Shown: positions 3,391 to 63,822 of the stretch, one piece after another
How positions within the stretch are numbered: position 1 is the first letter of the stretch
How the letters are laid out: each line of letters begins with the position of its first letter
Source: Chiloscyllium plagiosum
Lineage: Eukaryota
Length of the DNA stretch: 64,000 nucleotides
Assembly (NCBI RefSeq): GCF_004010195.1
Contig: NC_057718.1
Span: 94,965,994-95,029,993, forward strand
Reading direction: 5' to 3'
Made by a program: the position numbers and the translations under genes
The notes under the pieces: generated by a model
Database searches by the model: none
Told to the model about the DNA's origin: nothing
The model's input: only the letters and a program-made list of their open reading frames with translations

Positions 3391-5432
3391 GGTAGAGTGT
3401 TTAATACATATATATTAAAAGCATGCTATTCTTCAATTTGATATGCCACTTCATAATGTACAGCAAAATGTGTAATTGTACCAGCTCCCAAAGCTGTTCC
3501 TGGGGGATAGGGGTTGTGTGGCGGGGGGATGCTCCATCTATTGAAATTGTACTTTTATTTCATTAGCTGTCATTGTTACATTGCAGACATGGACTTTTTT
3601 CTGCACTGGGTGAGTTCATTTGTTTTATAGCTTGTCCCTGTGGAGGTCTTCTAAAAGCTCCAAAAGTTTTAGAAGTAAGGTGTACATGATCTTGGATTTA
3701 TATCCGTGTATTCTCAAGCAATCAAACTTTCATCACTAAGAGTTTCTGACTAATACAACAAAGTTGCAAAATAAAACATCAGTGCAACTTTCTTAATGAA
3801 AATACCATCTTTTTTTTATTGTTGAGGGGAGAAAAGAGGAATTTTAGTCTAATTTAATTACAGGACTCCTGGAGATTTTGGCTATCTTCTATCCTAATTG
3901 AAAGTTATGCATCCGATGCTTGTGTTCCACCTACCAGCCGGGTGGTGTAACTTAGAAACAGAATTCATATTTATATTGTTTGTGAATGCTTTCTAGCCTT
4001 TCCTATGATGTGATTTCTGCTTTAATCATTTCCATATACTGTATATCTTCCTCAATTCATGTTTTTAAATAGCAGCAATATTCTTAAAATCAGAATTGAG
4101 TGAATGCACATTGTTTTTATATTAACAACCATACTTCTTTATTAAGGTTGGAAACATTACCAGAATTTAATCTACACTATATTTTTGTACTTAATATCCA
4201 GAATACTGATCATCTTATAGTCATGACACAATTGACTCTGGCATCCTAAACCTCACAACTGTGTCATTTTGGTTTTTTTTAAACTGTTTAAACCAACTGA
4301 GTTGCATTATTTGTTTGGCTTTAAAGCCTGCAGTCTTTATTGTATTTCTGTTGTCATCATTTGTGTTTACATAGAACCTTTAATTTAGAAAAGTATTCCA
4401 AATATTTTCATAGTCGACAGTAAACTTGAAAGTTTGGAAGCAGGATGAAAACTGGTTGGTAATGACTGCGAATTTTAAATTGGATCCTAAAGAAGAGGTC
4501 TTGGAAGATTTTATGATACTCCAAAGCACAGGGCCTCGATGGTTGAAGCCATGCCACTAACATTAAGGTGAATACAGAGACATTTGAATGAGAAGCTCAT
4601 AATATTTGGCCTATTAGCAGCAGGTACTGGAGAAAAAGCCTGTAATTGGAGGAGCAACTTCTCACTGATTCTGTCCATTCTATTTGCAGCATGACTTTTC
4701 TCTGGTTGCCCCATGATTGAATTTTGCTGGGTATTTGGAGGCCTTCTTGTACTTTGAATCCTGGAATTGGGAGACATCAGAAATGGATTTGTATATGGGG
4801 ATGAAAATTTTAAATTGAAAGTTGGAAGCCAGTGTAGATGAGCAAGGGCAAGAGTAATGGGTAATTATTATTTAGTATCAGGCAATGGAAATTTGAAAAG
4901 TTGAAACTTATGCAGAATGGATGGCTAAAACAGCTTTGAAATAATTGAGTCTGATATTGTTAAATATTTTAAGAACACATGGGCTGAGGTGAACCAAGGA
5001 GAAAGGAGATACTTTGTAACATAGTAGATCAGTCCCAAGCTAAAGTTGCTGTTGCATCAGATATAAATGCCACTCAGTATTGTTCAACATGAGACAGTAG
5101 TATGGAATGAGTGCCAAGAGTCTGAGAGATGGGGTGATTTTGATTGATACTAAACCACATCTAAAGGTCAGGTCAGGTAAGGGAGAAGTGCGTGCAGAAC
5201 CTGATTCCACATTCAAAATTGAATTGTCAGCTTCTGATTTTTTTTAAAAATGGGGACAACATTATGCATCACCCCAGTGGGTTTAGGTTGTTTTCAAACT
5301 TTGATTTTCTACCTTGTAACTATTGTCTGACATTTTCCTTGGAAAAGAATAAGTCATGAGGGCTATGTGATGTCCTTCCATAATATTAATGTAGCCCAGT
5401 GTTTCTCAATGTGGTCTTTAAACTTATTTTTT

Positions 5433-5728
5433 CCCTCACAGCACCAGAAACCCGGTCTGATTCCTGCCTCGGGCAACTGTGTGGAGTTTTGCACATTCTC
5501 CCCGTGTCTGCGTGGGTTTCGTCCAGGTGCTCTGGTTTCCTCCCACAGACCAAAGACATGCAGTTTAGGTGAATTGGCCATGCTAAGCTGCCCGTAATGT
5601 TCAGGGATGTGTAGGTTAGGTGCATTGGTCGGGGAAGTGTAGGGGAGTGGGTCTAGGTGGGGTGCTGTTCAGAGGCTCAGTGTGGACCTTTTGGGCCAAA
5701 TAGCCTGTTTCAACACTAGGGATTCTGA
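5433..5728 (+). mobile_element. HE1-type tRNA-derived SINE
   Basis: Core gtgtggagttt(t)gcacattctccccgtgtctgcgtgggtttc...ggtgaattggccatgctaa is shared with other copies in the window. Confidence 0.85.
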
Positions 5729-6226
5729 GATTATCATGTCTATTAGTAATAGATTAGCAGTAATACTTTTAATTGATCAGATGGTCCAAAACATTTTGAC
5801 TGAGAAGGGAAAATTCATTGATTAATTTTTTGTTTACATATTATTATTCAGATCCTACAGTAAGGTATTCAGACTCACATACAATTACAAAAGTTATTTT
5901 GAGATGTAACAAATTTAGAATTTGATTCTTGCATTGGATTTGTGTGTCTTCCTGTTCTGCTGGCAGTGAGCTGTTTTCATTAAATCACGTTGCTCTACAT
6001 TGAATACATTGCTCTAAACACAAAGGTATAAGAAATGAGATATTTTCGATAAAAATTGGTGCTTAAGAGTATTCACAAAAATCGGAAGAAACAGCGTATG
6101 ATGTATTGTTTATTATACACATTATTTGTCAAACAAATTCAGAATGTATTAGGCAAGCTGAGGACATAATTGCTGAATTTGACTATATGCATGTTTATGT
6201 TGCAGAGGTTGACAAAATAAAGGAAG

Positions 6227-7650
6227 ATGGTCAGCAATCAAGTTGTACTGGAGTCAAGGGCAGCCCCTAAAAACTTGTTGGATGAAATGCACAAACTCCG
6301 GATTTTATGCTACTTCTGTGATGTAACTGTGCAGATAGAGCACCAAGGCAACAAAGAGGAATTTGTTGCTCACAAAGCTGTATTGGCAGCTGCCAGCAGT
6401 TACTTTAAGGAACTGTTCCTTAATGAAATGGTGAACACTAAGATTACTATCGTTACTTTGCAAGACATTTACACAGCAGACTTTGCCTCTTTTTTGGATT
6501 TTGTATATACTGCAAAAGTCGAGGTCGAAGCCGAGAGGGTACAAAGATTACAGGAGATTGCAGAGAAATTGAAGTGCAGGGAACTAGCCGAAGTTTGCAG
6601 TCAAGTAAAATCACAGATACTTGAGTCAGCTCTAATGGACTTGGGCAATTTGGCTGATTCCCAGGGAGCAGAAGGAATTATAGACAATAAACAGGACAGT
6701 GATTGTATTTCAATTTCTTCTCAAAACACATCAGCAATTCCTTCAACAGTAGACATTCGCCAAGTGTCCACTGCCTATGATATTTCTGATGAAGAGAAAT
6801 CTCATGATCAAGATTATAAGCCATTGCTAGTAACCACTAGAGCCAAAGGCTGGGAAAAGTCAGAAAAAGAGAAGAAAATGGGGAAACCTTTCAGTGGAAA
6901 GGCCAAGCGAGCCAGTGGAAGGCTGGCAGGCCGAAAAGTCTTTTTGGAAATTCCCAAAAAGAAATATACTCGTAAGCTTCGTGAGCAAGAGAAGGTTGAT
7001 CAAAATTTTGAAGAGGGATCTGAAAAATTGACCTGTGTAGAAGATAACCAAGTTGATGAAGACCAAGTGAAAAAAGAAACGATGGCTGAAATTGTTGAAG
7101 ATCCAGATGAAGAAGATGGGATGATGGAAGGGGACGATGATGAAGATGAAGCAGAGAGTGATAGTGATTTTGAATTAGATGAGGATACCAAAAAGACACC
7201 TGATGAGATTGAGAAAAAGAGAAGAGGTGGAAATTTTAAATGTGACAAATGTGAGAAAGACTTTCAATATGAGAAGAGCTACTTGAAACACATAGAGCAG
7301 AATCATGGTGTTACGCCTGAAATAATTTATCGCTGTGACACTTGCAATCAGACTTTTGCTAACCGCTGTAACTTAAAAAGCCACCAAAGGCATGTCCATG
7401 TTGAAGAGCGTCGCTTTCCATGCTCACTTTGTGGTAAAAAGTTTAAAAGGAAAAAAGATGTGAAGCGGCATAACCTTCAGGTTCATGAGGGTGGTGGAGA
7501 GCGTCACTTATGTCTGCAATGTGGTAAAGGACTGAGTTCCAAAACTGCTTTGAGACTCCATGAAAGGACACACACTGGAGATAAGCCTTATGAGTGCACG
7601 GAATGTCATGCTAAATTTTCTCAGCCATCTGCACTGAAGGTGCACTTGAG
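6227..7650 (+). CDS. GZF1: GZF1 first coding exon (BTB domain, acidic tract, ZF1-5)
   Basis: Acceptor tgcag at 6201-6205, in-frame TAA upstream of ATG 6227, BTB motif FCDVTV..F.AHKAVLAAASSYFK, donor AG|gtaaaa at 7651. Confidence 0.95.
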
Positions 7651-7724
7651 GTAAAATTGTGCTGAATAACTTTTTATAGTATGGATTTTGAGCCACTCAG
7701 TTATCTCTGCATGGATTTGAGGTA

Positions 7725-9612
7725 CTGTATAAACTCGTGTAAAAGTCAATTTTTTTTAGACGTTTTTAAAGTTGAAATTAGGAGATTGACTATTATGTAA
7801 GTATTGTTTTCGAGGGGATGGAATTCATGCTTGTTTTGAGTCAAAAATGGGCATACAAGAGCCAGATCACAATATAATTCTTTTTCCTTTTGTTTATTAT
7901 TTTATGAACATTATTGAATATTTGTCTACAAAATAACTGTGTCCATTCTGCCTCCTGCAGTAGAATGGTACTGTCATACCGTATTCCAGTTACCAGTACC
8001 GTAAAATGCATGTAGGTCTGCACATACCATATATAGTATAGTAATAGTTTAATTTTTTTGACTACTTTTTAAGGTTAAATTTATGTGGTCAACTCGACAA
8101 GGTTCCCATGGGAGACTGATTAGCAAGGTTAGATCTCATGCAATACAAGGAGAACTAGCCATTTGGATACAGAACTGGCTCAAAGGTAGAAGACAGAGGT
8201 TGGTGGTGGAGGGTTGTTTTTCAGACTGGAGGCCTGTGACCAGTGGAGTGCCACAAGGATCGGTGCCGGGCCCTCTACTTTTTGTCATGATTTGGATGCA
8301 AGCATAAGAGGTACAGTTAGTAAGTTTGCAGATGACTCCAAAATTGGAGGTGTAGTGGACAGCGAAGAGAGTTACCTCAGATTACAACAGGATCTGGACC
8401 AGATGGGCCAATGGACTGAGAAGTGGCAGATGGAGTTTAATTCAGATAAATGCGAGGTGCTGCAGTTTGGGAGGGCAAATCTTAGCAGGACTTGTACACT
8501 TAATGGTAAGGTCCTAGGGAGTGTTGCTGAACAAAGAGACCTTGGAGTGCAGGTTCATAGCTCCTTGAAAGTGGAGTTCGCAGGTAGATGGATAGTGAAG
8601 AAGGTGTTTGGTATGCTTTCCTTTATTGGTCAGAGTATTGAGTACAGGAGTTGGGAGGTCATGTTGCGGTTATACAGGACATTGGTTAGGCCACTGTTTG
8701 AATATTGCGTGCAATTCTGGTCTCCTTCCTATCGTAAAGATGTTGTGAAACTTGAAAGGGTTCAGAAAAGATTTACAAGGATGTTGCCAGGGTTGGAGGA
8801 TCTGAGCTACAGGGAGAGACTGAATAGGCTGGGGCTGTTTTCCCTGAAGCGTCAGAGGCTGAGGGGTGACCTTTATAGAGGTTTGCAAAATTTATGAAGG
8901 GCATGGATAGGATAAATAGGCAAAGTCTTTTCCCTGGGGTCGGGGAGTCCAGAACTAGAGGGCAAAAGTTTAGGATGAGAGGGGAAAGATATAAAAGAGA
9001 CTTAAGGGGTAACCTTTTCACGCAAAAGGTGGTACGTGTATGGAATGAGCTGCCAGAGGATGTGGTGGAGGCTGGTACAATTGCAACATTTAAGAGGCAT
9101 TTGGTTGGGTATTTTAATAGGAAGGGTTTGGAGGGATATGGGCCGGGTGCTGGCAGGTGGGACTAGATAGGGTTGGGATATCTGGTCGGCATGGACAGGT
9201 TGGACCGAAGGGTCTGTTTCCATGTTGTACATCTCTATGACTATTACAGGGATGACTACTTTTGAGGGTCTGAAGTTCATGTTCAAGTTCAAAATTCATA
9301 CAGTTTCATTAGCCGAAGTCCAGTTGATGTCTAAACAAATAAAGAAGAAAAACACAAAAATTACAGTAATTCTGACAATCTGGAACAGAGAGCAACAAGC
9401 CGGTAGACTGGAAGATCCAGTCGGAATGGAGCGGTACACCCAGCAGACTGGAAAGCTGGAGTGGAGTGCAACGGGCAGGCACACTGACTCATAAATGTTG
9501 ATCTGTTATCTGTGAAGAACTAGGGTCGACTTATATTGAAAATTCCAGATTTTTTGATGAAAGGTAAGAGGTTAACTTTACATGAGATCGACTTATACTA
9601 GAGTATATAAGG
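7725..9612. mobile_element. Non-autonomous Tc2/pogo-like (Tc1-mariner superfamily) DNA transposon, interrupted by a CR1
   Basis: Degenerate ~25-bp TIRs (ctgtataaactcgtgtaaaagtcaa vs reverse complement ccttatatactctagtataagtcga) flanked by TA at 7723-7724 and 9613-9614; second copy at ~22450-23098. Confidence 0.65.
8083..9245 (+). mobile_element. CR1 LINE, 5'-truncated (RT C-terminal half and 3' tail)
   Basis: SGVPQGSV.GP, SKFADD, LYRTLVRPL.EYCVQFW, tail ctctatgact. Confidence 0.92.
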
Positions 9613-10166
9613 TAGTTCAGAGGATGTCCCAATGATCTTGTTAGTTACAGCAATATAATCTACACATAATTAAAGTATAATCTTGTGCCTTTTATGAGCA
9701 AGATGGAAGAAGTAATTTATTCATGTAAAAATATGCAGAAGAGTTCTTCATCTTGAAATTTCTTTAGAAAACTGCATTTTCTTTGAAAGCATTGTTTCAT
9801 TGACTAGGTGATTTGCTAACCAAAGTAAAAAGGAAATGTTCTTGAGCATGCATATGGTGAGACAACCTCATGCCTGCCATTCCACTTAGCCAGACTCCAG
9901 TCTGTGGTGTTGATTTTTATTTAATCAGCAACTGCAATTCCTGGAAGCCATGCAATAGCCACCTCTTTTCTGAGTTGTGGAAGTGAGCACCTTGATAATG
10001 TGTAGCATTGTTTGTCTTTCAACGAGTGCATAAGTAGTTTGTACTGAGGCCTCATTGGCAGAGATTGCCTGTCCTAGCTTGTGCTGAGCCTCTTTATTAA
10101 GGTCCAATTTTCACTCTGCTATTTCAAAGCCTGCCACTTGACAGATGGGGTTTGTCACACGGAACT

Positions 10167-12062
10167 TAGAGTCATAGAGATGTACAGCACAGAAACAGTC
10201 CCTTCGGTCCATGCCGACCAGATATCCCAATCCAATGTAGTCCCACCTGCCAGCACCTGGCCCATATCCCTCCAAACCCTTCCTATTCATATGCCCATCA
10301 TGATGCCTTTTAAATGTTGCAATTGTACTAGTCTCCACCACTTCCTCTAGCAGTTCATTCCATACACTTAACCACTGTCTGCATGATAAAGTTGCCCCTT
10401 AGGTCTCTTTTATATCTTTCCCCTCTCACCCTAAACGTGTGCCCTCTAGTTCTGGACTCCCCCACCCCGGGGAAAAGACTTTGTCTATTTATCCTATCCA
10501 TGCCCCTCATGACGTTTATAAACCTCTACAAGGTCACCCCCTCAGCCTCCAACGCTCCTGGGAAAACAGCCCTAGCCTATTCAACCTCTCTATAGCTCAA
10601 ATCCTCCAACCCTGACAATATCCTTGTAAATCTTATCTGAACCCTTTCAGGTTTCACAACATCTTTCCGATAAGAAGGAGGCCAGACTTTCATGCAATAT
10701 TCCAACAGTGGCCTAACCAATGTCCTGTATAGCCGCAACATGACCTCCCAACTCCTGTATTCAGTACTCTGACCAATAAAGGAAAGCATACCAAACGCCG
10801 CCTTCACTATCCTATCTAACTGCGACTCCACTTTCAAGGAGCTATGAACCTGCACTCCAAGGTCTCTTTGTTCAGCAACACTCCCTAGGACCTTACCCAT
10901 TAAGTGTATAAGTCCTGCCAAGATTTGCTTTCCCAAAATACAGCACCTCACATTTATCTAAATTAAACTCCATCTGCCACTTCACAGTACATTGGCCCAT
11001 CTGATCAAGATCTCGTTGTAATCTGAGGTAACCTTCTTTGCTGTCCACTACACCTCCAATTTTGGTGTCATCAGCAAACTTTGCCTCTTATGCTTACATC
11101 CAAATCGTTTATAAAATTATGAAAAGTAGAGGGCCCAGCACCGATCCCTGTGGCATCCCACTGGTCACAGGTCTCCATTCTGCAAAACAAAAGCTCCACC
11201 ACCACCACCCTCTGTCTTCTACCTTTGAGCCAGTTCTGTGTCCAATGGTGAGTTCTCCCTGTATTCCATGAGATCTAACCTTGCCCACCAGTCTCCCATT
11301 GGCAACCTTGTCCAATGCCTTACTTAAGTCCATATAGATCGCATCTACCACTCTGCCCTCATCAATCCTCTTTGTTACTACTTCAAAAAACTCAATCAAG
11401 TTTGTGAGACATGATTTTCAATGCATAAAGCCATTTTGACTATTCTTAATCAGTCCTTGCCTTTCCAAATACATGTACATCCTGTCCCTCAGGATTCCCT
11501 CCAACAATTTGCCCATCACCGAGGTCAGGCTCACTGGTCAACAGTTCCCTGGCTTGTCCTTACCACCTTTCTTAAACAGTGGCACCACGTTAGCCAACCT
11601 CCAGTCTTCCGGCACCTCACTGTGACTATTAATGATACAAATATCTCAGTAAGAGCCCCAGCAATCACTTCTCTAGCTTCCCACAGAGTTCTCGGGTACA
11701 CCTGATCAGGTCCTGGGGATTTATCCACTTTTGTGATTCAAGACATCCAGCATTTCTTCCTCTCTAATATGGACATTTTTTCAAGATGTCACCATCTATT
11801 TCCCTATATTCTATATCTTCTATCTCCTTTTCCATAGTAAATACTGATGCAAACTACTTATTTAGTATCTCCCCCCATCTCCTGCGGCTCCACACAAAGG
11901 TTGCCTTGCTGATCTTTGAGGGGCCCTCTTCTCTCCCTAGTTAGCCTTTTGTCCTTAATGTAATTGTAAAAACTCTTTGGATTCTCCTTAACTCTATTTG
12001 CCAAAGCTATCTCATGTCCCCTTTTTGCCCTCCTGATTCCTCTCTCAAGTATATTCCTACTG
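10167..12062 (-). mobile_element. CR1 LINE, 5'-truncated (~1.9 kb of ORF2)
   Basis: KSPGPD, DAIYMDLSKA.DKV, SGMPQGSVLGP and the 3' tail; frameshifted. Confidence 0.92.
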
Positions 12063-13120: not shown

Positions 13121-15018
13121 TGAAGCAGTTCAGTTTGTACAGCCTGAAACAAGGTGTAAAATACAATCAAAAGTTGTGATTCAGCTACATCTCCTAGCTT
13201 ATTAACAAGTATCTGGAATTGGCAGCGCTGCTTGAAATAGCTGATAACCTTGGAGCTGTGCCATAGCAAATGGCATATATATGAAAGAAAGTGAAAATAA
13301 AAGCAAAATAAATTGGTCGTAATAAAGAATAAACGAATGTTAAACATGATATGCCTGTGCAAGTAAAAAGTGGCTCGGCTGATCTGTCTCTGGAAGTACC
13401 TCAACCCAATTATTATGGTCCACAATCTGTTAAATTATCACCGCTATCTATTGAACAGTTTGACCTCTGGAAGGTAAGTACCTAGACACTAGAGGAAAAA
13501 AGTTTCTGAATGAAGAGTATGGTAATGGAGGAAATAAAATGGAAGTATCACCTTGCAAAGAACTGTCTCGCATCTCTGTTGCAATTTGTAATATTAAATC
13601 AAGCTGTGAAGAAGTCAGTTTGGTTGCTTTGACAATCATGTACAGGTGAAGAAAAACTTTTTTGCTATGACATAAAACTAAATGTAACAAGGCAAAAACT
13701 TTAATTTTTCAAAAAGCCTTTTTAAAAGTTATATTTGTGCAGATTTGACCATTTATTTTTACATTAATTTTCTTCCCAGCTTTTCTTTAAGTGTTAAACA
13801 GGCCTTTATTGTTTTCATTGGACTGCTGTGCTTACAACAATCACTCTTAGTGAGGGTGTGTCATTTGGATGTCTACAAGCTATTTACCTCATGTGAACTG
13901 CAGCTGAGCCTAACCTTGGCTAATCTGCACTCATTCAGTTTAAGTAAAGGTCACTGGATATTGGTCAGGAGCAAAACCTTGGCCAGTTCTCCTCCCCTTA
14001 TCTTGTTCTACTGCAGTGTTAACAGATCAAATAAGCCTTCACAGATTGGAGATTGAACTGCTTTGTGCAGCTTACTGTGATAAACTGTTAAGGCCCGGGG
14101 CATCCTTGAAGAAACCTCCTTAATGTTTTGCAGAACTCCAAAAAAGAACATATGTGTTTTTGTATAAGTAATAAGTATTAGAAATAATTGTTACTGGTGT
14201 TTTTCTGGATATTTCAGATGTGTGAAGAAATTTAGGAGCTGCTGGTACTCTAAAGTTTGAGTGTTTGTCCAAGTTTAAATGTTTGGTCAAGCTCTGCAGA
14301 ACCAGGATCTTGAGAGGAGTCAGGAATTTATTAAGTTTGTTGTGCTTTGACATATTCCCAAGAGATATAATATGGTACTTTATGAAGGCAAGTTTGATAA
14401 AATGAATTTAGGAGAACAAACTCATAAGTTTCAGCCAACCGTGTTGCAGAAGAAATATTGATGTATGTAGCCACTACATATCCAAAAAGAAATTATATGT
14501 AAAAATAAATGGTCATTGAATCTAAATACGTGGTAACAGAAAATGATGGAACAGCACAGTTGGACTCCAAAGCAAAGGCTACGTTAGCATTTTGGATACA
14601 CCTTCTTGTGTCTAAAATATTAGCATATTCTTCAAGAAACTGATCAATCTGCTGTATGTTTCTAAAGTTTTCTAGTTTTTATTTTGACTTTGACTCATTT
14701 TCTTTTTACTCCCTTTTACACGTATATAATATCTGAAAAGGACTGCAAACTGATCGAATGACCATAGGACACAGGAGCAGAAATAACCATTTTGGTACAT
14801 CCAGTCTTCTGTGCCATTCACTGAGTCCATGGTTGATCTGATCCTTAATATCACTGTCTTGCATTTTCCCCATAACTCTTGATTTCCTAACTGAAACTAT
14901 GCTTTTCAGCCTTGAATATAATTAACGTTGCAGCCTCAACAGTCCTTTATGGTTAAAAAAAATTCCACAGATTCAACACCATTTGAGAGAAGAAATTTGT
15001 CCTCATCTCTCATAAATG

Positions 15019-15312
15019 ATTTGATTAGATTACTTACAGTGTGGAAACAAGCCCTTCAGCCCAACAAGTCCACACCGACCCGCCGAAGCGCAACCCATTC
15101 CCTTACAATTACCCCTACACCTAACACTATGGGCAATTTTTTTTTTAGCATGGCCAATTCACCTAACCTGCACATTTTTGGACCATGGGAGGAAACCCAC
15201 GCAGACATGAGAATGTGCAAACTCCACACAGTCAGTTGCCTGAGGCAGGAATTGAACCTGGGTCTCTGGCGCTGTGAGGCAGCAGTGCTAACCACTGTGC
15301 CACCATGCCGCC
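15019..15312 (-). mobile_element. HE1-type SINE with 8-bp TSD, nested in an older LINE 3' fragment (~14755-15360)
   Basis: tRNA-like head, (taatc)n tail, cataaatg at 15011-15018 and 15313-15320. Confidence 0.9.
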
Positions 15313-18300: not shown

Positions 18301-18818
18301 GTTTTGAGATGGTTTGTAGCTCAGGTTGAGGTTCTGGTTATAGGTTTGTTCACTGAGCTAGAAGGTTCGTTTTCAGACGTTTCGTCACCATAACCAGGTA
18401 ACATCATCAGTGAGCCTCTGGATGAAGCACTAGTGGCATGACCTGATTTTTATTTGTGTTCCTTGGGTTGGTGGTATCATTTCCTGTGATGTCATTCCCT
18501 TTTTATTCTTGGGCTGGTAAATGCGATCTAAGTCAATGTGTTTGTTGATATGTTAATTCAACAAACACATTGACGTGGGTCCCATTTACCACCCACTGAG
18601 GAAAAAAAGGGAATGACATCACAACAGGAAATGACACCACCAACCCAAGGAAGTCTAAACACACAAATAAAAAACAGACCATGCCACCAGTGCTTCATCC
18701 GGAGATTCACTGATGAATTTACCTAGCATGGTGACGAAACATCTGAAAACGAACCTTTGAGCTCAGCGAATAAACCTACATGCAGAACCTCAACCTGAGC
18801 TATAGGCTGTCTCAAAAC
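18301..18818. mobile_element. Penelope-like element inverted pseudo-LTR pair (palindrome, ~250-bp arms)
   Basis: Arms are reverse complements around ~18553. The right arm encodes NKHIDVGPIYHPL (PLE-like ORF end), and both arms carry hammerhead motifs. Confidence 0.8.
18373..18413 (-). ncRNA. Minimal type I hammerhead ribozyme motif (PLE type)
   Basis: UCA-CUGAUGA-U-GUUACC-UGGUUAU-GGUGAC-GAAAC-GUC^-UGA: intact core, 6-bp stem II, palindromic ACGU stem III, 3-bp stem I. Confidence 0.7.
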
Positions 18819-32640: not shown

Positions 32641-34122
32641 GTTGCTGGTGAAACCACATCTAGAGTACCATGACTAATTTTAATCCTCTTGCTTAAGAGT
32701 GTATTATGTCATTGGAGGTAGTTTAGAGAACATTCAGTAGGATGATCCCCATTATGGAGGGATAATCTTATAAGTAAAGGTTAAATAGGTTGGGACTCAC
32801 TTCATTGGAATTTAGAAAAACTAGAGGTGATCTCATTGAAGCATGTAGAATTCTTAAGAGAATTGACAGGGTAAATGCAAAAAGAATGTTTCCCCTTCAT
32901 TGGACAGTCTAGGAACCGAGGGAGTTGCTTCAAAAATAAGTAGAAATTCTACCTCATCTCAGTTTTAAATTGGCACCCCTTAAGGCAAGAAGTTCCAAAG
33001 ACTTTCACCTTGAGAGCTGTGGGGGTAGAGTCTTTGTGTTTATTTAATGTTGAGATGAATTCTTGATTAATAGGGTATCAAAGGTTTGAGTGAAAGGGGA
33101 GGAAATTGTCAATGTGAGAAGTGTTGAATCGGTTACGATCCAATTCAATGGCAGAGGGGCTGTTCCTGTTCCTGTTTCTTATGGTCTTATTTTGCTGTTG
33201 GATACAATCCAGCAGAGGCAGACTTTGGAGTGTTGCATTAAGGCTTACTTGATCAGCTTCAAGTCCTTAATGAGTCCAAAGATGTGCAAGTTAGGTGAAT
33301 TGTCTATGCTAAATTGCCCATAGTGTTCAGGGATGTGCTGGTTAGCTACATTTAGTCAGGGATAAATGTAGGGGAATGGGTCTGGGTGGGTGACTCTTTG
33401 GAGGGACGGTGTGGACTTGTTGAGAAATCTAGACAATTCTTCCAACATTCAGAACTTATTTAGCCTACCTACAGGGCTGTGCCCTTTTAAAGGTTTTCAC
33501 TCCAAATTACTGCAAGTCCAGTTGTGGCTCTCCAAATCAATCCTGCAGTCATAGTTCTTTTCAGGCAGTGATTGTGACTCTTCTATTTTAAGTTTATTAT
33601 TCTTGAAATACTTGACCAAAAAAAACTGAAGAATACAAAGGTGTTCCCGGGAAACAAAGATTCCGTCTTCAACACTAGCTTCAACAATTTTTGAGTTTAC
33701 TATAAACTGCAGCAGTATGCGGAGGCTAGTGCTGCTATCAAAATATTATTAACATACAACAGGATTTTTAAAACAATGTTGTATGTTTGGTATGTTTTTG
33801 TGTGTGTGGTCGTGCCTTCAACTAATGTTTGCTGAGGTTGTGCAGACACGTCTGGCCTGTAGTGCTGGTGCGATGTTCTGTTTACAGAATCACAGGACAA
33901 TGGATTATGTTCTGTCTCCGTGATGGACAGCAATTTAGATAATGTTCCCAAAAAGGCTCATGTACGTCACAATCTGAGAGAAAGTTGTGCAGGAGTGTTA
34001 AGGTGCAGTTTAGCCCAGGATCTTGGAATATTGAGTTTTCAACCCAACTGATCTTCAAGGATGTGATTTGAAAGTTTGTCCTTTATGTATTTGTTTAAAA
34101 CTATGTTGCCATTGCTAAGATA

Positions 34123-34339
34123 GTTAAAAATCACACAACACCAGGTTATAGTCCAACAGGTTTAATTGGAAGCACACTAGCTTTCGGAGCGACGCTCCTT
34201 CATCAGGTGACACAATCACCTGATGAAGGAGCGTCGCTCCGAAAGCTCGTGTGCTTCCAATTAAACCTGTTGGACTATAACCTGGTGTTGTGTGATTTTT
34301 AACTTTGTACACCCCAGTCCAACACCGGCATCTCCGAAT
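34123..34339. mobile_element. Young Penelope-like mini-insertion: 89-bp inverted repeat plus 3' extension, 13-bp TSD
   Basis: Arms 34122-34210 and 34216-34304 (1 mismatch); TSD cattgctaagata at 34110-34122 and 34340-34352. Confidence 0.88.
34217..34251 (+). ncRNA. Minimal hammerhead ribozyme motif (mirror copy on minus strand at 34175-34209)
   Basis: CAC-CUGAUGA-A-GGAGC-GUC-GCUCC-GAA-AGCU-C^-GUG. Confidence 0.7.
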
Positions 34340-34784
34340 CATTGCTAAGATAAATAGATGTTGATGATGCCCAAGTGACTTGCTTGTGGAAGGAGTTACT
34401 TCAAGTGTGTTACCAAGAGAAAACAAATCCAAGTTAAAGGGTTAAATTTCTTTATACATTCATATTCCACTAACTCCCATTCATCTGATTGATTCCAGCA
34501 ATCTGCTTGACTATCATCCAAATCTGAGGGTTTACTTGCTGCCAGGAAGTGAATAGATGTGCAGACTTTAAAGTGATACCAATTTTTAGTTTACCCACAT
34601 ATTTAGGACAATGCAGCAACAGACTGGGATCAGAAGAGGTGATAAAGAGGTGTTCTTCATGGTGCTAGGATAGGAAAGGATGAGTTATCAAGAAGGGTGA
34701 TAAGGAAGCAGTGAAGCGCAAGAAAAGGAGAGCGTCCAGGAAAGAAAGTTAATCATGTACAAAGTAGTTTTGATTGGCCAAGGA

Positions 34785-35405
34785 ATGGTGGAGTTCAGAT
34801 AAATGTGAGATGTTGCAGGACTTCTACAGTTAATGGTAGAGTCCTGCCAAGCAAAGGGACATAGGGGTGCAGGTGCACAGTTCCTTGAAAGTGGAGCTGA
34901 AGGTGAACAGAGTGGTGAAGGTATTTGGCATACTTGCCTTCATTGGCCATGATATTGGGTATAGGATTTGAGATGTCAAGCTGCTGCTGTACAAGACATT
35001 AGTGAGGCTACTATTAGAATACTCCATGCGATTATAGTCAATTTTCTATAGGAAGGATGTTGCTGAAAAGATTTACAAGGTTGTTGGGATTGGAGAATTT
35101 AGCCATAGGGAGAGGCTGAATGGATTGGGGTTTTTTTCTTGGAGTTTCCAAAGCTGAGGAGTGACCTGATAGAGGTTTATAAACTCATGAGGAGCATGGA
35201 TACTGTGAATAACTCTGGTCCTTTCTCCCCACCCAAGGAAATGTCCAAAACTAGAAGGCATAGGTTTAAGAGGAAGAAGGAAAGATTTAGAAAGGACCTG
35301 AGGGGTAACTGAGTTAGATACAATTACAACATTTTAAAAGCATCTGGGTGGATAAGTGAATGGGATGGGGTGAGAGGGATATGGGCCAACTGCTGGCAAA
35401 TGGGG
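34785..35405 (+). mobile_element. Older CR1 3' fragment
   Basis: Degenerate match to 8400-9170. Confidence 0.8.
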
Positions 35406-35725
35406 TTAAGATTAGATTACTTGTTGGGGCGAAGGGCCTGTTTCCACACTAAGTTCTCACTGACCTCTGAAGAGCAACACACCCAGACCCATTCCTCTAC
35501 ATTTACCCCTTCACCTACCCCTTCACCTAACACTACAGGCAATTAAGCATAGCCAATTCACCTAACCTGCACATCTTTGGGTGCTCCGGTTTCCTCCCAC
35601 AATCCAGAGGAAATCCATGCAGACACTGGGAGAATGTGCAAACTCCACACAGACAATTACCGGAGGCCGGAATGGAACCTGGGTCTCTGGGTGCTGTGAG
35701 GCAGTCAGTACTAACCACTGTGCTG
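35406..35725 (-). mobile_element. HE1-type SINE
   Basis: Same head, core and gattag tail as the other copies. Confidence 0.85.
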
Positions 35726-43580: not shown

Positions 43581-43845
43581 ACACTAATTATTCTGTCACA
43601 TTGCCCACAGGAAGCTGTTGGATCCAGTTCATGAGATATATTCAAGAGGAAGCTGTACATGGCCCATGCAGCTAAAGGGATCAAGGAATGCAGAGAGAAA
43701 GTGGGAATGGGATGCTGTATAATCAGTCATGAACATATTGAAAGGAGGTGTGGGCTGAATGGCCTATTCATGCACTCTATATTGTATGTTTCTATTACAC
43801 AGTATAAGTCAATTATAACCTGTTCTCTGCTTGGTTCAAAAGTGT

Positions 43846-44134
43846 GATTAGATTAGATTACTTACAGTGTGGAAACAGGCCCTTCAGCCCAACAAGTCCA
43901 CACCGACCCACCGAAGCACAACCCACCCATACCACTACATTTACCCCTTCACCTAACACTATGGGCAATTTAGCATGGCCAAATCACCTGACCTGCAATT
44001 CTTTGTGACTGTGGGAGGAAACCCACGCAGACAAGGGGAGAATGTGCAAACTCCACACAGTCAGTCGCCTGAGGCGGGAACTGAACCCGGGTCTCTGGCG
44101 CTGTGAGGCAGCAGTGCTAACCACTGTGCCGCCC
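43846..44134 (-). mobile_element. HE1-type SINE
   Basis: Highly similar to 15019-15312; (gatta)n tail. Confidence 0.9.
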
Positions 44135-47852: not shown

Positions 47853-50800
47853 CATAGAGTCACAAGAACAGACCCTTCAGTCCAACCCGTCCATGCTGAC
47901 CAGATATCCCAACCCAATCTAATCCCACCTGCCAGCACCTGACCCATATCCCTCCAAACCCCTCCTATTCACATACCCATCCAAATGCCTTTTAAATGTT
48001 GCAATTGTAGTAGTCTCCACCACTTCCTCTGGCAGCTCATTCCATACACATACCACCCTCTGCGTGCAAACGTTACCCCTTAGGTCTTTTTTTATATATC
48101 TTTCCCTTCTCACCCTAAACATGTGCCCTCTACTTCCAGACTCCCCGACCCAGGAAAAAGACTTTGTCTATTTATCCTGTCCATGCCCCTCATGACTTTA
48201 TAAACCTCTAAGGTCACCCCTCAGCCTCCGATGCTCCAGGGAAAACAGCCCCTGCCTATTCAATCTCTCCCAATAGCTCAAATCCTCCAACCCTGGCATC
48301 ATCCTTGTAAGTCTTTTCTGAACCCTTTCAAGTTTCACAACATCCTTCAAGGAGACCAGAATTGCACGCAATATTCCAAAAGTGGCCTAACCAATATCCT
48401 GTCCAGCCACAACATGACCTCCCAACACCTGTACTCAATACTCTGACCAAGAAAGGAAAGCATACTAAACACCTCTTTCACTATCCTATCTACCTGCGAC
48501 TCCACTTTCAAGGAGCTATGAACCTGCACTCCAGGGTCTCTTTGTTCAGCAACACTCCCTAAGACCTTACCATTAAGTGTATAAGTCCTGCCAAGATTTG
48601 CTTTCCCAAATTTTAGCACATGGTATTTATCTAAATTAAACTCTATCTACCACTCCTCAGCCCATATTGGCCTATCTGATCTAGATCCCGTTGCAATCTG
48701 AGGTAACCTTCTTCACTTCCCACCACACCTACAAATTTGGTGTCGTCTGCAAACTTACTAACTATACCTCTTATGCTCATATCCAAATCATTTATATAAA
48801 TGATGAAAAGTAGAGCACTGATCCTTGTGGCACTCCAGTCTGAAAACAACCCTCCACCACCACCTTCTGTCTTCTACTTTCAAGACAGTTCTGTATGCAA
48901 ATGGCAAGTTCTCCCTGTATTCCACGAGATCGAACCTTGCTCACCAGTCTCCCACGGGGAACGCCTTACTAAAGTCCATATAGGTCGCTCTGCCCTCATC
49001 AATCGTCTTTGTTACTTGTTCAAAAAACTCTGTCAAGTTTGTGAGACATGATTTCCCACGCACAAAGCCATGTTGACTCTCTCTAATCAGTCCTTGCCTT
49101 TCCAAATACATGTACATCCTGTCCATCAGGATTCCCTCCAACAACTTGCCAACCACCAATGTCAGGCTCACTGGTCTACAGTTCCCTGGCTTGTCCTTAT
49201 CACCTTTCTTAAACAGTGGCACCACGTTTGCCAACCTCCAGTCTTCCAGCACCTCAATGTGACTATCGATGATACAAATATCTCAGCAAGAGGCCCAGCA
49301 ATCACTTCTCTAGCTTCCCACAGAATTCTACAGCACACCTGATCAGGTCCTGAGGGTTTATCCACTATTATGCACTTCCTCCTCTGTAATATGAGCATTT
49401 TTCAAGATGTCACCATCTATCTCCCTACATTCTACATCTTCCATGTCCTTTTCCACAATAAACACTGATGCAAAATACTCGTTTATTATCTCCCCCATCT
49501 CCTGCAGCTCCACACAAAGGCCGCCTTGCTGATCTTTGAGGAGCTCAATCTCTCCCTATTTACCCTTTTGTCCTTAATGTATTTGTAAAAACACGTTGGA
49601 TTCTTCTTAACTTTATTTGCCAAAGCTATCTCATGTGTCCTTTTTGCCCTCCTGATTTCCCTTGTAAAGTATACTCCTCCTGCCATTATAGTTTAAGGAT
49701 TCAGTCAATCTATCCTGTCTATACCTGACATATGCTTACTTCTTTTTCTTAACTGAACCCTCAATTTCTCCAGTCATCCAGCATTCCCAACACCTACCAG
49801 ACTTTCCTGTCATCCTAACAGGAATATACTTTCTTTGGACTCTCGTTATCTCATTTCTGAAGGCTTTCCATTTTCCAGCTGTCCCTTTACCTGCAAACAT
49901 CTGCCCCCAAATCAGCTTTTGAAAGTTCTTGCCTAATATTGTCAAAATTAGCCTTCCTCCAATTTAGAACTTAATCTTTTAGATTTGGTCTATCTTTTTC
50001 TATCACTATTTTAAAACAAATAGAATAATGGTCGCTGGCCCCAAAGTGCTCCCTGACAGACACCTCAGTCACCTGCCCTGCCTTATTTCCCAAGAGCAGG
50101 TCAAATTTTGCACCTTCTCTACTAGGTACATCCACATACTGAATCAGAAAATTTTCTTGTACACACTTAACTTCCTTTCTATCTAAACCCTTAACACTAT
50201 AGCAGTCCCAGTCTATGTTTGGAAAGTTAAAATCCCATACCATAGCCACCCTATTATTCTGACAGGTAACAGCGATCTCCTTACAAATTTGTTTTTCAAT
50301 TTAGCCTCTGACTATTAGAGGGTCTATAATACAACCTCAATAAGACAATCATCCCTTTCTTGTTTCTCAGTTCCACCCAAATAGCTTCCCTGGATGTACT
50401 TCCAGGAATATCCTCCCTCAGCACAGCTGTAATGCTATCCTTTGTCAAAAACACCAGTCCCCCTCCTCTCTTGCCTCCCTTTGTCCTTCCTGCATCTTTT
50501 GTATCCTGGAACATTAAGCTGCTAGTCCGGTCCAGCCCTGAGCTGTAATTGCTATGATATCCCAGTTTCTGTAATTGCCATGATATCCCATGTTCCGAAC
50601 CATGCCCTGAGTTAATCTTCCTTCCCTGTTAGGCCTCTTGCAGTGAAATAAATGCAGTTTAATTTATCAGTCTACCTTGTACTCTGCTTTGTCCCTGCTG
50701 CCCTGACTGTTTGACTCGCTTGTTTTCTCAACTGTACCAGTCTCAGGTTGATCTCTTTTCTCACTATCTCGCTGGGTCCCACCCTCCACTCCTCCCAAGC

Positions 50801-53664: not shown

Positions 53665-53868
53665 TAGAGTCAGAGTTACAAAGCGTGGAAACATACCCTT
53701 CAGTCCAACTCGGCAAGCTGACCAGATATCATAAATTAATCTAATCCCATTTGCCAACATATGGCCCATATCCCTCTAAACCCTTCCTGTTCATATATCC
53801 AGTCAGGTGCTTTTTAACTGTTGCAATTGTATTGGCCTTCACACTTTCTCTGGTAGCTCATTCCACAT
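53665..53868 (-). mobile_element. CR1 3' tail (continues at 57707-58145)
   Basis: Matches 10167-10365. Confidence 0.85.
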
Positions 53869-55809: not shown

Positions 55810-57706
55810 CATTGATGCAGATGAACGATCCGGCAGCTGGGGGGGGGTGGAGAGATAGTAAACTGGATGCCATGTCCAGACTGCTGATGGAAATGGTCAA
55901 AGATGCCAAGCTGTATGACGTCTTCAGCACCCTTGCAGACGGAGCGCAGCATAGATACACCTGGTCACGGGCAGACGCGTCTATACGCTCAAGGATAGAT
56001 TACCTGTTTGCGTCCTGAAGGCTCTCGGTCAGATCCACCGACGTCAAGCCGGTGTTCTTCTCTGACCACTACCTCCTGCGGGCCGACTGGCACCTACAGG
56101 ATGAGCAGTGGGCTGGTAAGGGAACGTGGAAGCTGAACACCAAGCTGTTGACCCCGGGAAACATTGAGGAGCTCAAGAGGGACTACACAGGTTGGAGAAC
56201 CGTGAAGCCCCTCTGAGTCTCCAGCAGACTGGCAGGAAACAGTAAAAGGAAACATCAAGAGGTTCTTCATCCTCAAAAGGTGTTCACGAGGCGAGAGAGA
56301 GGTAGGGAGAACTGTCCCAACTCCAGGAAAGTATGCAGAACCTGCTCCTGCTGCAGACAATGGGGGTGGATGTCACAGAGGATTCATCCTGACCAAACCT
56401 GTGCTGTACTGGGCAGGAGGATTTCTGAGAGTCTCGCACTCCTCAGGGATACAATCGCCTACGTGCAGGACCGGGGGTTGGACAACTGCCTCATCAGCCT
56501 GGACCAGGAGAAAGCCTTTGACAGGATATCGCATACGTATATGAGAGATGTTCTCTCCAAAATGGGCCTTGGGGAGGGAATCTGCAATTGGATCAGACTG
56601 CTCTACACCAACATTGTCAGTGCAGTTTCAGTTTCAATCAATGGGTGGGTATCAGACAGCTTCCCAGTCACATTTGGAGTCAGGCAGGGCTGCCCTCTCT
56701 CTCCTTCCTGCTTTGTGTGCTGCATAGAGCCATTTGCCGAGTCCGACAGGAAGGATGCGAGCCTGAGGGGTGACTATTCCCGCCAGCTGGGGCCTACAGG
56801 TTAAGGCCTCCCTGTACATGGATGACGTTGCTGTTTTCTGCTCGGATCCGCTGTCCGTGTACAGACTCATATGACCAGTTCGAACGGGCCTCGGGGGCCA
56901 AGGTAAACCGAGGCAAGAGTGAGGTCATGCTCTTCGGGAACTGGGCCGCCAACCCTCCATCCCCTTCACCGTCAAGTCTGACCACCTGAAGGTATTTGGT
57001 TCAGAGGCGCTGGTGCGTGCGCCAAATCAGGAAAGTGAGGCAGAAACTGGGCAGATGGAAGCAACGGTTGCTCTCCATCGTGGTTAAAAATCTGGTCATC
57101 AGGTGTGAGGCACTGTCATTGGTGTTATATGTGGCACAGGTCTGGCCTATTCCCAGAACCTGTGCCGCCGCAGTCACCCGGGCCATCTTCCACTTCATGT
57201 GGCGATCAAAGATGGACCGAGTCCGAAGGGACTCGATGTATAAAGATCTGGGCAATGGGGGGAAAAAAAACACACCCAATGCCACCCTCACCCTGATGGC
57301 CACCTTTGTGTGTGGCTGCATCAAGTTGTGCATAGATCCCCAGTACGCAAACACCAAGTGTCACTATGTACTGAGGTTCTACCTGTCCCCGGTGTTGCGA
57401 AGGATGGGCCTGGCCTCGCTGCCGCGGAACACTCCAAGTAGTTGGACCGTTCCATATCACCTGTCCTTCGTGGAGAAATTTATGAAGAAAAACACCTTTG
57501 ACCATAAGTCCATCAAGAAGTGGTCAGCACGTAGTGTCCTTGAGACCCTTCGGGAAAAGGAGAGGGCAGATCCTATCAAGTGGTTCCCTAAGCAGACTGT
57601 CAAAGTCATTTGGCAGAATGCCTCATCGCCAAAACTTTCCAACAAGCACCAAGACATGGCTTGGCTGGTGGTGAGAAGGGTTCTGCCTGTGAGATCGTCT
57701 ATGCAC
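55810..57706 (+). mobile_element. Tx1-like LINE internal fragment with internal deletion near 56380
   Basis: YTWSR...SRIDYLF, SDH, WKLNTKLL, ISLDQEKAFDRISH, GVRQGCPLSP, LYMDDV; no 3' tail. Confidence 0.85.
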
Positions 57707-58145
57707 GCGTGAAAGAGTTAGTTAGGTCCCTTTTAAAATCTTTCCCCTTTCACCTTAAACCTATGTCCTCTAGTTCTGGACTCCCCGACCTCAGGGAAAA
57801 TATCTTGACTATTTAACCTGATGATTTTATAATCCTCTAAGGTCACCCCTCAGCCTCCAACGCTCCAGAGAAAACAGCCCGAGCCTATTCAGCTTCTCTC
57901 TATAACTCAAACCCTCCAATTCTGGCAACATCCTTGTAAATCTTTTCTGAATCCTTTCAAGTTTTACAACATTTTTTGTATAGCAGAAAGACCAGAATTG
58001 AACACAGTATTCCTTCATTTTGAAGGAACTATGAACCTGCACTCAAAAGGTCCCTTTGTTCGGCAACACTCCCAGGACCTTATCATTAAAAGGTGTATAA
58101 GTCCTGTCCTAATTTGCCTTTCCAAAAAAAAATGCAGCACCTCAC
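57707..58145 (-). mobile_element. CR1 fragment, upstream continuation of 53665-53868
   Basis: Matches 10381 onward. Confidence 0.85.
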
Positions 58146-59439
58146 CATTATTTGTTTATTTTGTCAAACTTTTCATAAAACGCAACAATGCAATTAGTCA
58201 TCCAAATGAATAGATCAATTGTTTCTGGTTTTCAAATTTTGAATTATTGCAAACATTAGCAATATGTAACTGCTATAAACAAAGATAATTTTCTAATATA
58301 GACTTCAAAACTATCAAGGCCACTTTATTATTCAAGAGACAACATCCAAAAATATTAATAACTTAGTCATTGAAATTGTGAGAGCTTTGAAAACTTTTAC
58401 TGGGCAGAGAGTGGCAAGAGTACTTTGACAAATAATGTTCAAAGGAAACTACTAAGGATTTATAAAGCATCAGTTACTAACATATATTTTTTGAACCCAG
58501 AGGTATTAAAAAAAGGAAGGAATCCCCACGACACCAACTGAAATAAAATATTTCACTTTGTAAAACTTTTACTGCAACAAACCAATCAAAATCAACATAA
58601 TTCAAACAGTATTTAACAAGAGAAGGATATTTCAAATTGAAAAGTAAGTTTCACTTCAAATAGTCAAAGATATACCTTAAGTAGTTACAAGCCTTCACAT
58701 TACTTCCCACATAAATGTGAACCGTATCCAAACTGTCTCCAAATCTTTCCTACTCAAGTCAGTTCAGCCCTTGAATAAATTTCATCATCCAAAATCTCTG
58801 GATGTTGTTAATACCAGCAATTATCACTCTCATACAAGTCATATCAGTGCTGATGCTACAGAGTCCCAAGAAATTTCTTTGTCAATCCCTTAAAATGTTC
58901 TGGTTTGCTCTGGTAAACTGGAACAGGAGCAATTGGTCTTTTCCAATCCATCATTTCCTGTTCTTCCCATCTCCAGTTCACTGGAAGTTACAACTGCATA
59001 CAGTCTCTGTCCTATTCACACAGAATTGCTTCCAATTAAGATGTTAAATAGAAAACAGATCCATTTACATACTGTCTCTCTTGCTTTCAGACTCACCAAT
59101 TCTGCATGTTCTGAACAAACTCATTAACTTTCTATTAACCTTTTTGCTACATACCTTTTTTTATTAATCCCCAGGCAATCTCAGGTGACACTGACATTCA
59201 TTGGACTCTGGGTATCATAACCAGTTAAAAGAAAAGTCTTTCAGAATACTCCCAAGTTCACTTTAGTCTTAACATGCTAAAGGGGACATCACACAACAAA
59301 ATGTTTTTCCCCCCCAGAATGTATAATCGCCATTAACAGTGACTGTAATCTGATTTTACAATGAATGACAAAGAGCTGAAAACAATTAGGGTGAAGAGCA
59401 CGGAGTGTGTAGAAAAAAAGATTTAGCCTAACACAATAC

Positions 59440-59713: not shown

Positions 59714-60176
59714 CTGTGGGGAAAACAACAAAAGCTAATTCAGAAAAGCAATGCTTCCAGTGTTTCAGTGTTCAATTTATAAAATGTATCTCAGTCATTT
59801 CACTTTACATTTTAAAATAAAAAATAAGAAGTGAGCTAAGGAGTCCCACAAACATATAAATTAAAAAGAGGAGTCAGCTATTCAGCCTACAGAGCCTGTC
59901 CTGCCATTCAACAAGATCACAGCCCATTTGATTTACTGCACCTTGTGCCTACTTTCATAATCTTTTGCCCCTTATGAATCTAATCTCTGCTGTAAAAATA
60001 TCCAAAGAAAGGAAGTAAGTTCCTAAGACTGTGTGAGGGGAAAAAACTTCATCCTCATCTCCACCTTACATTGGCCACTCCTTATTTTTAAAAAGTGACC
60101 CCCTTAAATCTAGATACTTCTAGAAGAGAAACATCTTTCGCACGCACGCTTTCTCAAGAGCCAAGATCCTGCATGA

Positions 60177-60497
60177 GCGGTTAGCACTGCTGCCTTACAG
60201 TGCCAGGGACCCGGGTTCAATTCCCAGCATTAGGGGCAGCTGTCTGTGTGGAGTTTACACGTTCTCCCAGTGTCTGCGTGGGTTTGCTCTGGTTTCCCTC
60301 CAAAGGTTTGCAGGTTAGGGGGATTGGCCTTGCTAAATTGTCCATGGGTGTCCAGAGATGTACAAGCTGTGGATTGGGAAACACAGGGTTACAGGGATAG
60401 GGTAGGCAGTTGGGTCTGGGTGAGATGGTCTTCGGGCATCAGTGTGGACTCAATGGGCTGAGTGACCTGCACCCACATTGTAGGGAATTCTATGATT
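60177..60497 (+). mobile_element. HE1-type SINE
   Basis: ggttagcactgctgcc...ggttcaattcc head (A/B boxes) and shared core. Confidence 0.85.
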
Positions 60498-61154: not shown

Positions 61155-61480
61155 TTAGATTAGATTAGATTCCCTCCGATATGGAAACAGGCCTCTCGGC
61201 CCAACAAGTCCACAACGACCCTCTGAAGAGTAACCTACCCAGACCCATTCCCCTACCCTACGTTTACCCCCAATTAATGCAGCTAACACTGTGGACAATT
61301 TAGCATGGCCAATTCATGGCATATCTTTGGAGTGTGGAATGGAAACCGGAGCACCTGAGGAAACCCACGAAGACACAGGGAGAATGTGCAAACTCCACAG
61401 AGATAGTCACCCGAGGCAGGAATCGAACCTGGGTCCCTGGCAGTGAGAGACAACAGTGCTAACCACTGAGCCACCGTGCC
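61155..61480 (-). mobile_element. HE1-type SINE
   Basis: Full head and (attag)n tail. Confidence 0.9.
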
Positions 61481-61954
61481 GTTACTGTTACCTGTGGCCA
61501 GACTCCCCTCCCATTCTCTTCAAACTTATTCTGCTGGATAAAACCAAGAAGTGTGAACAAAATGAGGACTTTAGATTTTCCTTTCTCCTGGTACCAGTCC
61601 ATTTCTTTCTCATTTTGTAGCTGGTTATGAGGACGTTGGGTGACTGCAGCAGTCCCTGTACACCACTGGCACTGGGTGGCTTTCAGCTTAAAACTGGAGC
61701 ACTCTCCTTGCCTGCATCGCCCACAGCACAACTAACAACACTTCCACGGCACAGGAAACCCACATTCATCAGAAACATCAATGGAGCAACAATGCAGATG
61801 CTGTGAGGACACCGGTTCAAATCCCACCACAGCAGCTGACAGAAGTTTTCAATTCAATTAATTAAAATTCGGAATTAAAACCTTTTCTGAACAAAGATGA
61901 CCGTGACAACCAATATTGATTGTTTCATTTGGTTCACTACTGCCCTTTAGTGGC

Positions 61955-63620: not shown

Positions 63621-63822
63621 AAATTACTGCAGATGCTGGAATCTGTACTGAAAACAACAAATGGTCAGACAGCATCCTTGAATAGAGAGCAATCTAACAT
63701 TTTTTAGTCTAGATGACCCTATCATAGCTGACTCTGAAGAAGAGTCAACTAGACTCAATGTTAGCATGCTCTCTCTTCATGGATGCTGTCTGACCCACTG
63801 GGATCTCCAGCATTTGTTGTTA
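63621..63822. mobile_element. Degenerate Penelope-like inverted repeat
   Basis: gtcagacagcatcc...gagagc / gctctc...ggatgctgtctgac arms; decayed ctgaaga-a-gagtc-aacta-gactc hammerhead-like core. Confidence 0.6.

Follow-up and report, generated by a model that had tools for sequence, protein, structure and literature searches.

How does a near-perfect palindrome with a ribozyme motif on each strand come to lie between two convergent genes, and is such a palindrome a mobile unit in its own right? We address this question for positions 34110-34352 of a 64-kb stretch of Chiloscyllium plagiosum DNA (the window, meaning the whole stretch that was analysed). We read the locus, with a probability of roughly 0.88, as a dead-on-arrival insertion of a very high-copy Penelope-like element (PLE), of which only the ribozyme-bearing pseudo-LTR (pLTR) end was copied, twice and head to head.

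The insert measures 217 bp. It consists of two 89-nt arms (34122-34210 and 34216-34304) that differ at a single position, T34178 against C34248, a 5-nt centre that joins them (CACAA, 34211-34215) and a tail on one side only. It is flanked on the forward strand by an exact 13-bp direct repeat, 34110-34122 on the left and 34340-34352 on the right, which has a chance probability of about 5e-5 with 40 x 40 positions allowed and which probably represents a target-site duplication. The predicted hairpin folds with -171.2 kcal/mol (z = -31; 0 of 200 shuffled sequences were equally stable), and stops in all three frames leave the insert without coding capacity. The original prediction of a palindromic insertion of about 220 bp, with arms pairing at 88 of 89 positions and a perfect 13-bp duplication, is therefore borne out. 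Its one-sided extension is also present, but with 89-nt arms this tail is 35 nt long (34305-34339, forward strand, delimited by the arm ends and the family ends) and reaches the predicted 36 nt only if the pair A34122/T34304 is excluded from the arms.

Four public sequencing runs of the 24 listed (X3, X5, X15 and X21) were compared with positions 33600-34800. Contigs matching the element region number 67,768 in X3, 32,675 in X5 and 3,209 in X15, and in X3 the summed depth, which is not a copy number, is 1e5-1e7 on the element but about 17 on the flanks. The family is very high-copy. Within the 64-kb window no second copy of the element was found, and searches for the exact pattern among contigs from metagenomes, viruses and prokaryote genomes found no locus in any of the three sets.

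The ends of these family copies reveal how the insert is put together. In X3, family 3' ends pile up at 34305/34306 (357 and 378 contigs) and at 34342 (379 contigs), which places the two end sites 56-60 and 91-94 nt after H17, the cleavage-site nucleotide of the hammerhead. These pile-ups (34304-34308 and 34342) coincide with both ends of the insertion: one copy ends at the downstream site and has the tail, and the inverted copy ends at the upstream site and has none. The direct, 5'-truncated copy of the PLE end occupies 34211-34342 on the forward strand, with loose ends before 34211 and behind 34342. The inverted, tail-less copy, with its sense on the minus strand, occupies 34123-34210, as judged from the arm comparison and the mirrored family ends at 34304-34308, and begins 4 nt ahead of the hammerhead core, reaching as far as the family's upstream end site. 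Since family copies extend as far as 34342, the right-hand duplication begins with 3 nt that are element sequence too, a 3-nt microhomology; on the left the microhomology is 1 nt, the last base of the duplication also pairing as the first base of the left arm.

The direct copy starts 5 nt earlier than the inverted copy. Longer family copies extend upstream past 34211, in one subfamily with a TATAAA about 23 nt before it, and from its sequence context the direct copy would start near the predicted transcription start. Because longer copies continue upstream of 34211, the CACAA centre is native element sequence. The original prediction was thus right about 5 nt at the centre but not about their role as a loop or spacer, since these bases lie directly before the hammerhead in longer family copies as well. 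Loose ends show one and the same end module attached to at least two different upstream sequences, which suggests several subfamilies. A search for an RT or GIY-YIG gene linked to the family found none, in loose ends that reach only about 30 nt upstream.

A truncated end with an inverted copy, a tail of the 30-40-bp class, a duplication and a hammerhead in the pLTR are all found here, and the published pattern is close. In the available parts of the sources, PLE insertions typically comprise an inverted 5'-truncated copy and a 30-40-bp tail (PMC8557442), and duplications of 8-10 bp flank inverted pLTRs in rotifer examples (PMC3846280). The likeness to these EN+ PLE complex insertions lies in the head-to-head copy, the tail at one end, the duplication and the pLTR hammerhead; the differences lie in the extreme truncation, to 217 bp without an ORF, and in a duplication of 13 bp rather than 8-10 bp. 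The insertion fits the known pattern 'inverted pLTR + tail' and is an ordinary example of it. The predicted Penelope-like origin with an inverted pseudo-LTR accordingly agrees with both the structure and the published insertions.

Could the palindrome instead move as a complete unit of its own, as a non-autonomous element of the retrozyme-like or fold-back MITE kind? Long near-perfect inverted repeats with a flanking duplication, and the absence of coding capacity, are compatible with such a unit. The fold-back joints of the family argue strongly against it: all 14 found within the element, among the best 15 of 456 joints by support, have different centres. Since the centres differ between copies, the mirror half is made anew at each insertion. 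Six of these 14 joints have one end within 13 nt of 34211, in a subset chosen by support and not a sample; the aligned pieces considered, the best 24 of about 97,700, were chosen in the same way. Furthermore, the one-sided tail means that the termini do not form inverted repeats, longer copies run upstream through the centre, and each strand carries a single ribozyme that is masked in predicted folds. Retrozymes themselves are defined as head-to-tail tandems with a same-strand ribozyme in each unit (bioRxiv 10.64898/2026.07.22.740005, in the part available). The animal non-LTR retrozymes described there are likewise protein-less, bear a type I hammerhead and derive from PLE pLTRs, whereas the present locus is a single head-to-head pair with one motif per strand. 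We consider whole-unit copying very improbable, and with it the original prediction's retrozyme-like unit; a TIR transposon or MITE, which that prediction named as the outcome that would overturn it, is equally at odds with the one-sided tail and the 14 distinct centres among the joints listed. The same preprint finds non-LTR retrozymes in the single chondrichthyan it sampled, and its chondrichthyan families may include this PLE-end family. Four of the 14 listed joints end 2-3 nt from the ribozyme cleavage site, and we discarded truncation at the cut as their cause: alignments are interrupted at that point by a common 2-nt indel and by the C17 mismatch.

Each copy of the PLE end, in the reading we prefer, brings its own hammerhead. 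The minus-strand motif (34175-34209, identified by the core pattern and the family consensus) has a 3-bp stem I, a CUGAUGA core at 34206-34200, a bulged A, a 5-bp stem II, GAAA and a palindromic AGCU, with H17 = A34178 (CUA, the consensus of the family). In the plus-strand motif (34217-34251, identified by the core pattern), stem I is formed by 34217-34219 and 34249-34251, the core lies at 34220-34226, stem II at 34228-34232 and 34236-34240 and the AGCU at 34244-34247, with H17 = C34248 (CUC), a minority variant. A relaxed core pattern matches three times in the window, in both arms and in a second element at 18377-18410, against 0.25 expected, and 0 of 100 shuffles reached three. Both arms show the min-HHR type I features: C3-A9, G12-A15, a bulge after 9, G10.1-C11.1, a palindromic 15.1-16.1 and an NUH triplet. 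A minimal type I hammerhead with a palindromic AGCU stem III in each arm, as originally proposed, is therefore supported by the core-pattern search, but the companion Rfam search over the locus returned no hammerhead model at any E up to 10. Its miRNA-like matches are below the gathering score (best 43.6 bits against 81), and we rejected a microRNA precursor in favour of hairpin artefacts.

The motifs resemble the min-HHR of metazoan PLEs (PMC4209133) in being type I, with a bulge between 9 and 10.1, G10.1-C11.1, a palindromic 15.2-16.2 and no stable stem III. That source also describes paired minimal hammerheads on opposite strands in Schistosoma, where the two members lie about 100-700 bp apart; here the two cores are 13 nt apart, and stems II and I have 5 and 3 bp against 7-8 and 4-5 bp in the Schistosoma consensus. 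The available part of PMC4209133 makes no mention that we found of cartilaginous fish.

Quantitatively, the predicted fold of an isolated arm gives stem II a probability of 0.9-0.96 and stem I one of 0.03-0.05. In five read-through folds, including nascent ones that end just past the ribozyme, both probabilities are 0.0, in line with the earlier suggestion that the hairpin would mask the ribozyme in read-through RNA. The sole arm mismatch does fall on H17, as CUA at 34178 (minus strand) and CUC at 34248 (plus strand). The meaning attached to it does not hold up: C17 is a minority family variant, seen in 25 of 336 RNA reads over 34248 with A in 221, and one event shows nothing. C17 is most simply a point change, with a 1/89 chance of landing on H17, which is odd. 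Elsewhere in the family, variants cluster in loop II and the neighbouring pairs, several of them CpG transitions, in a variant table that is unphased. A common 2-nt deletion lies right after the cleavage site (34173/34249; 223 of 957 RNA reads at 34173) and shortens the GU run that forms stem I.

Which RNA could have been copied into the insert? Run X21 is a 3'-biased single-cell poly(A) RNA run, of which about 2% was read. All 1,996 placed reads fall on the element, and 23 of 30 bins, comprising all unique flank, are empty. Poly(A)-tailed family reads make up 600 of the 1,996 (355 + 245), seen as loose ends with long poly(T) stretches at 34146 and 34149, which mirror 34280 and 34277. The tails are added 12-15 nt after ATTAAA/AATAAA, downstream of the hammerhead. 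On the plus strand the signal is ATTAAA at 34260-34265, with poly(A) sites at about 34277-34280 and a GU-rich downstream element within 34260-34300; its mirror on the minus strand (34146-34166) comprises ATTAAA at 34166-34161 and sites at 34149 and 34146. AATAAA replaces ATTAAA in 32-43% of the summed family depth in X3. Polyadenylation of family transcripts thus takes place some 30 nt beyond the cleavage site. The tailed reads stem from the family at large and may not derive from the copy at 34110-34352; elements themselves, or host transcripts that end in inserted copies, fit equally as their source. We rejected internal oligo(dT) priming as the origin of the tails, since the 20 nt that follow contain only 1 and 3 A.

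The same reads bear on cleavage. Depth across H17 is 830 and 860 on its two sides, and X21, a library that cannot show short cleaved products, has no pile-up of read beginnings or ends at the cleavage site. Given this steady depth and the lack of an end pile-up, the captured tailed RNAs are mostly uncut. For the Poseidon PLE PAc of Anolis carolinensis, the available part of PMC11167929 likewise reports no public RNA reads ending at the ribozyme cut.

PAc also offers a biochemical comparison. According to the same available part of PMC11167929, the purified protein, a predicted dimer, cuts each of the two DNA strands and extends it, and it begins reverse transcription at two sites inside the RNA, one on either side of the tail. 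The present family has two favoured 3' ends that delimit its tail, at a similar distance from the ribozyme, although the distances are comparable and not identical: the PAc start site, read by eye, lies 82-89 nt after H17, against 56-60 and 91-94 nt in the present family. The two also differ in coding and processing. The PAc ORF starts in the ribozyme and stays open, whereas here the frame from the hammerhead-core ATG closes after 13 codons and is followed by a poly(A) signal, a hexamer that visual inspection did not find in the printed portion of the PAc template. An exact match to PAc in a cut site 26 nt after the ATG was considered and dropped, the PAc start codon beginning at a different core base.

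Because the poly(A) site precedes both family end sites, a tailed 3' end cannot template those ends. Together with the use of both preferred sites by the insertion, this limits which RNA can be the template. One candidate is a short, protein-less, SINE-like RNA from the PLE end, with its own promoter and mobilised in trans, which would leave the insertion mechanism unchanged. The early closure of the core-ATG frame, the used poly(A) signal behind the ribozyme, the presence of at least two upstream sequences on the same end module and the PLE-derived non-autonomous units described in the available part of bioRxiv 10.64898/2026.07.22.740005 all speak for such an RNA. On the other hand, an RNA that is tailed at 34277-34280 contains neither family end site and cannot serve as a template for the tail. 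In addition, the tailed reads extend beyond 34211 on its upstream side, still in family sequence (282 and 287 reads with loose ends), as longer transcripts would. We regard the SINE-like template as unlikely, at perhaps one chance in four. Read-through tandem transcripts, as proposed for PAc (PMC11167929, in the part available), explain the same facts.

Drawing our intuition from the ends, the microhomologies and the PAc activities, we can sketch how a single event might have produced the insert. In this two-nick model an endonuclease would nick the two strands 13 bp apart, and each nick would prime its own cDNA, one per start site: the bottom strand would use the tail end (3 nt of microhomology) and the top strand the upstream site (1 nt). 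Both cDNAs would stop near the RNA 5' end, just upstream of the hammerhead, and would then be joined without homology. As a whole, comprising paired nicks, two cDNAs and their joining, we rate this model only slightly above even odds. L1-type twin-priming as the source of the inversion fits the data equally and is not distinguished from it, and self-priming, proposed in the part of PMC3846280 available, remains a rival for the same step.

A more speculative version treats the pseudo-LTR as a true U3-R-U5 unit that yields strong-stop cDNAs, the mini-palindromes being two joined strong-stops. A TATA and a start just before the hammerhead, a poly(A) site about 30 nt past the cut and RT start sites beyond it would form the unit. 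A tailed RNA does not contain the RT start sites at its 3' end, so copying would begin near the RNA 5' end and would give a short strong-stop cDNA. For a long copy this cDNA would jump to the R repeat at the RNA 3' end, and a mini-palindrome would result when strong-stops from each nicked strand were joined before either had jumped. We hold this to be a tentative idea, doubtful at present. The literature searched, at the level of titles and counts, gave no description of a poly(A) site after the hammerhead or of the two-nick model, and polyadenylation is not mentioned in the available part of Schostak 2008.

When did the insertion occur? The original prediction called it very young, but in two other samples junction contigs suggest that this insertion is present as well. 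X3 has contigs at 33600-34145 and 34319-34800 that pass without a break from the unique flank into the element, at the depth of a single copy; over about 1 kb, the haplotype they represent departs from the window at about 5 letters and by 3 indels. In X5, a contig at 34323-34511 shows zero differences, including the rare G34336, where the family has A in 85-96% of its depth and G in 30 of 238 RNA reads. These junction contigs enter the element by 6-24 nt only, below the 31-letter bridging rule, and they are a strong indication, short of proof, that X3 and X5 carry the insertion. The X15 flank contig begins at 34422, short of the junction, and no empty-site joint occurs among the joints listed. 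One mismatch in 89 is compatible with an arm divergence of 0.03-6%, and the insertion is younger than an 81%-symmetric palindrome at 18301-18818. In the nearby flank, X3 lacks 29 nt at 33701, and at an imperfect hairpin at 33740-33798 it has 9 nt extra in the left arm and 9 nt fewer in the right, a pattern suggestive of a small inversion polymorphism.

The 18301-18818 palindrome belongs to a different, older family, with arms of about 250 nt. Each arm has a hammerhead-like motif, at 18410-18376 (minus strand) and 18710-18743 (plus strand), the latter with an altered base after the GAAA, and near the centre one frame gives a stop-broken peptide that may resemble a PLE endonuclease C-terminus. 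A third palindrome, at 63663-63795 with its flanks in an intron of the SNAP gene, is more decayed (77% symmetric) and has a degenerate hammerhead-like core in its right arm. Around these two older palindromes we found no duplication longer than 6-7 bp. Other repeats in the window include LINE fragments of 67-87% similarity at 2700-12060, 34815-35420, 47870-49680, 53690-53865 and 57700-58150, with an RT match at 8190-8894 and an inverted pair at 8096-9242 and 10170-11312. Frameshifted ORF pieces of a non-LTR retrotransposon (RVT_1, E=7e-14) occupy a G+C-richer stretch at 56217-57712. A further dispersed family is of SINE size (about 290 bp); its copies, 69-88% alike, lie at 5430-5710, 15018-15310, 33273-33422, 35458-35723, 43845-44133, 60176-60345 and 61158-61481.

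Finally, we consider whether the insertion does anything where it sits. Pfam domains identify a BTB-zinc-finger gene on the plus strand, with its stop at 25262, about 8.8 kb before the insertion, and a SNAP gene on the minus strand, with its stop at about 40310, about 6 kb away. The predicted convergent arrangement is confirmed by these domains; the names GZF1 and NAPB are those of the original prediction and would fit vertebrate synteny. With a poly(A) signal on each strand that the family uses elsewhere, an intergenic position between convergent genes and an apparent presence in three haplotypes, the insertion could have been co-opted as a two-way terminator or as an RNA-decay or dsRNA element. 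We judge this highly improbable: 23 unique-flank bins hold 0 X21 reads, the stop codons are 6 and 8.8 kb away with several AATAAA intervening on each strand, the signal and the ribozyme sit inside the hairpin in predicted read-through RNA, and such palindromes are common in the window. Read-through that feeds Dicer or ADAR, as the original prediction envisaged, likewise finds no support in the 0 of 1,996 X21 reads on unique flanks, a weak count from about 2% of a 3'-biased run. With one hammerhead motif per strand, a read-through transcript of either strand reaches the antisense arm first and offers its single sense motif no same-strand partner for the dimer on which minimal hammerheads depend, so the ribozymes would be inert at this locus. 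The locus as a whole is most likely inert.

As a single locus, this insertion carries little weight: it is one of very many stubs that follow a published pattern. It nonetheless preserves a clean trace of how PLEs integrate, a reaction that the available parts of PMC8557442, PMC11167929 and PMC3846280 present as still unresolved, and the two-nick, strong-stop model is testable from one assembly together with mapping of RNA 5' and 3' ends. If the U3-R-U5 idea were true, the tail, the pseudo-LTR and the inverted copy would all come from one target-primed, retrovirus-like route. The poly(A) site just past the ribozyme may help to explain how such elements are copied, and a family this abundant would supply host transcripts with many portable poly(A) signals.
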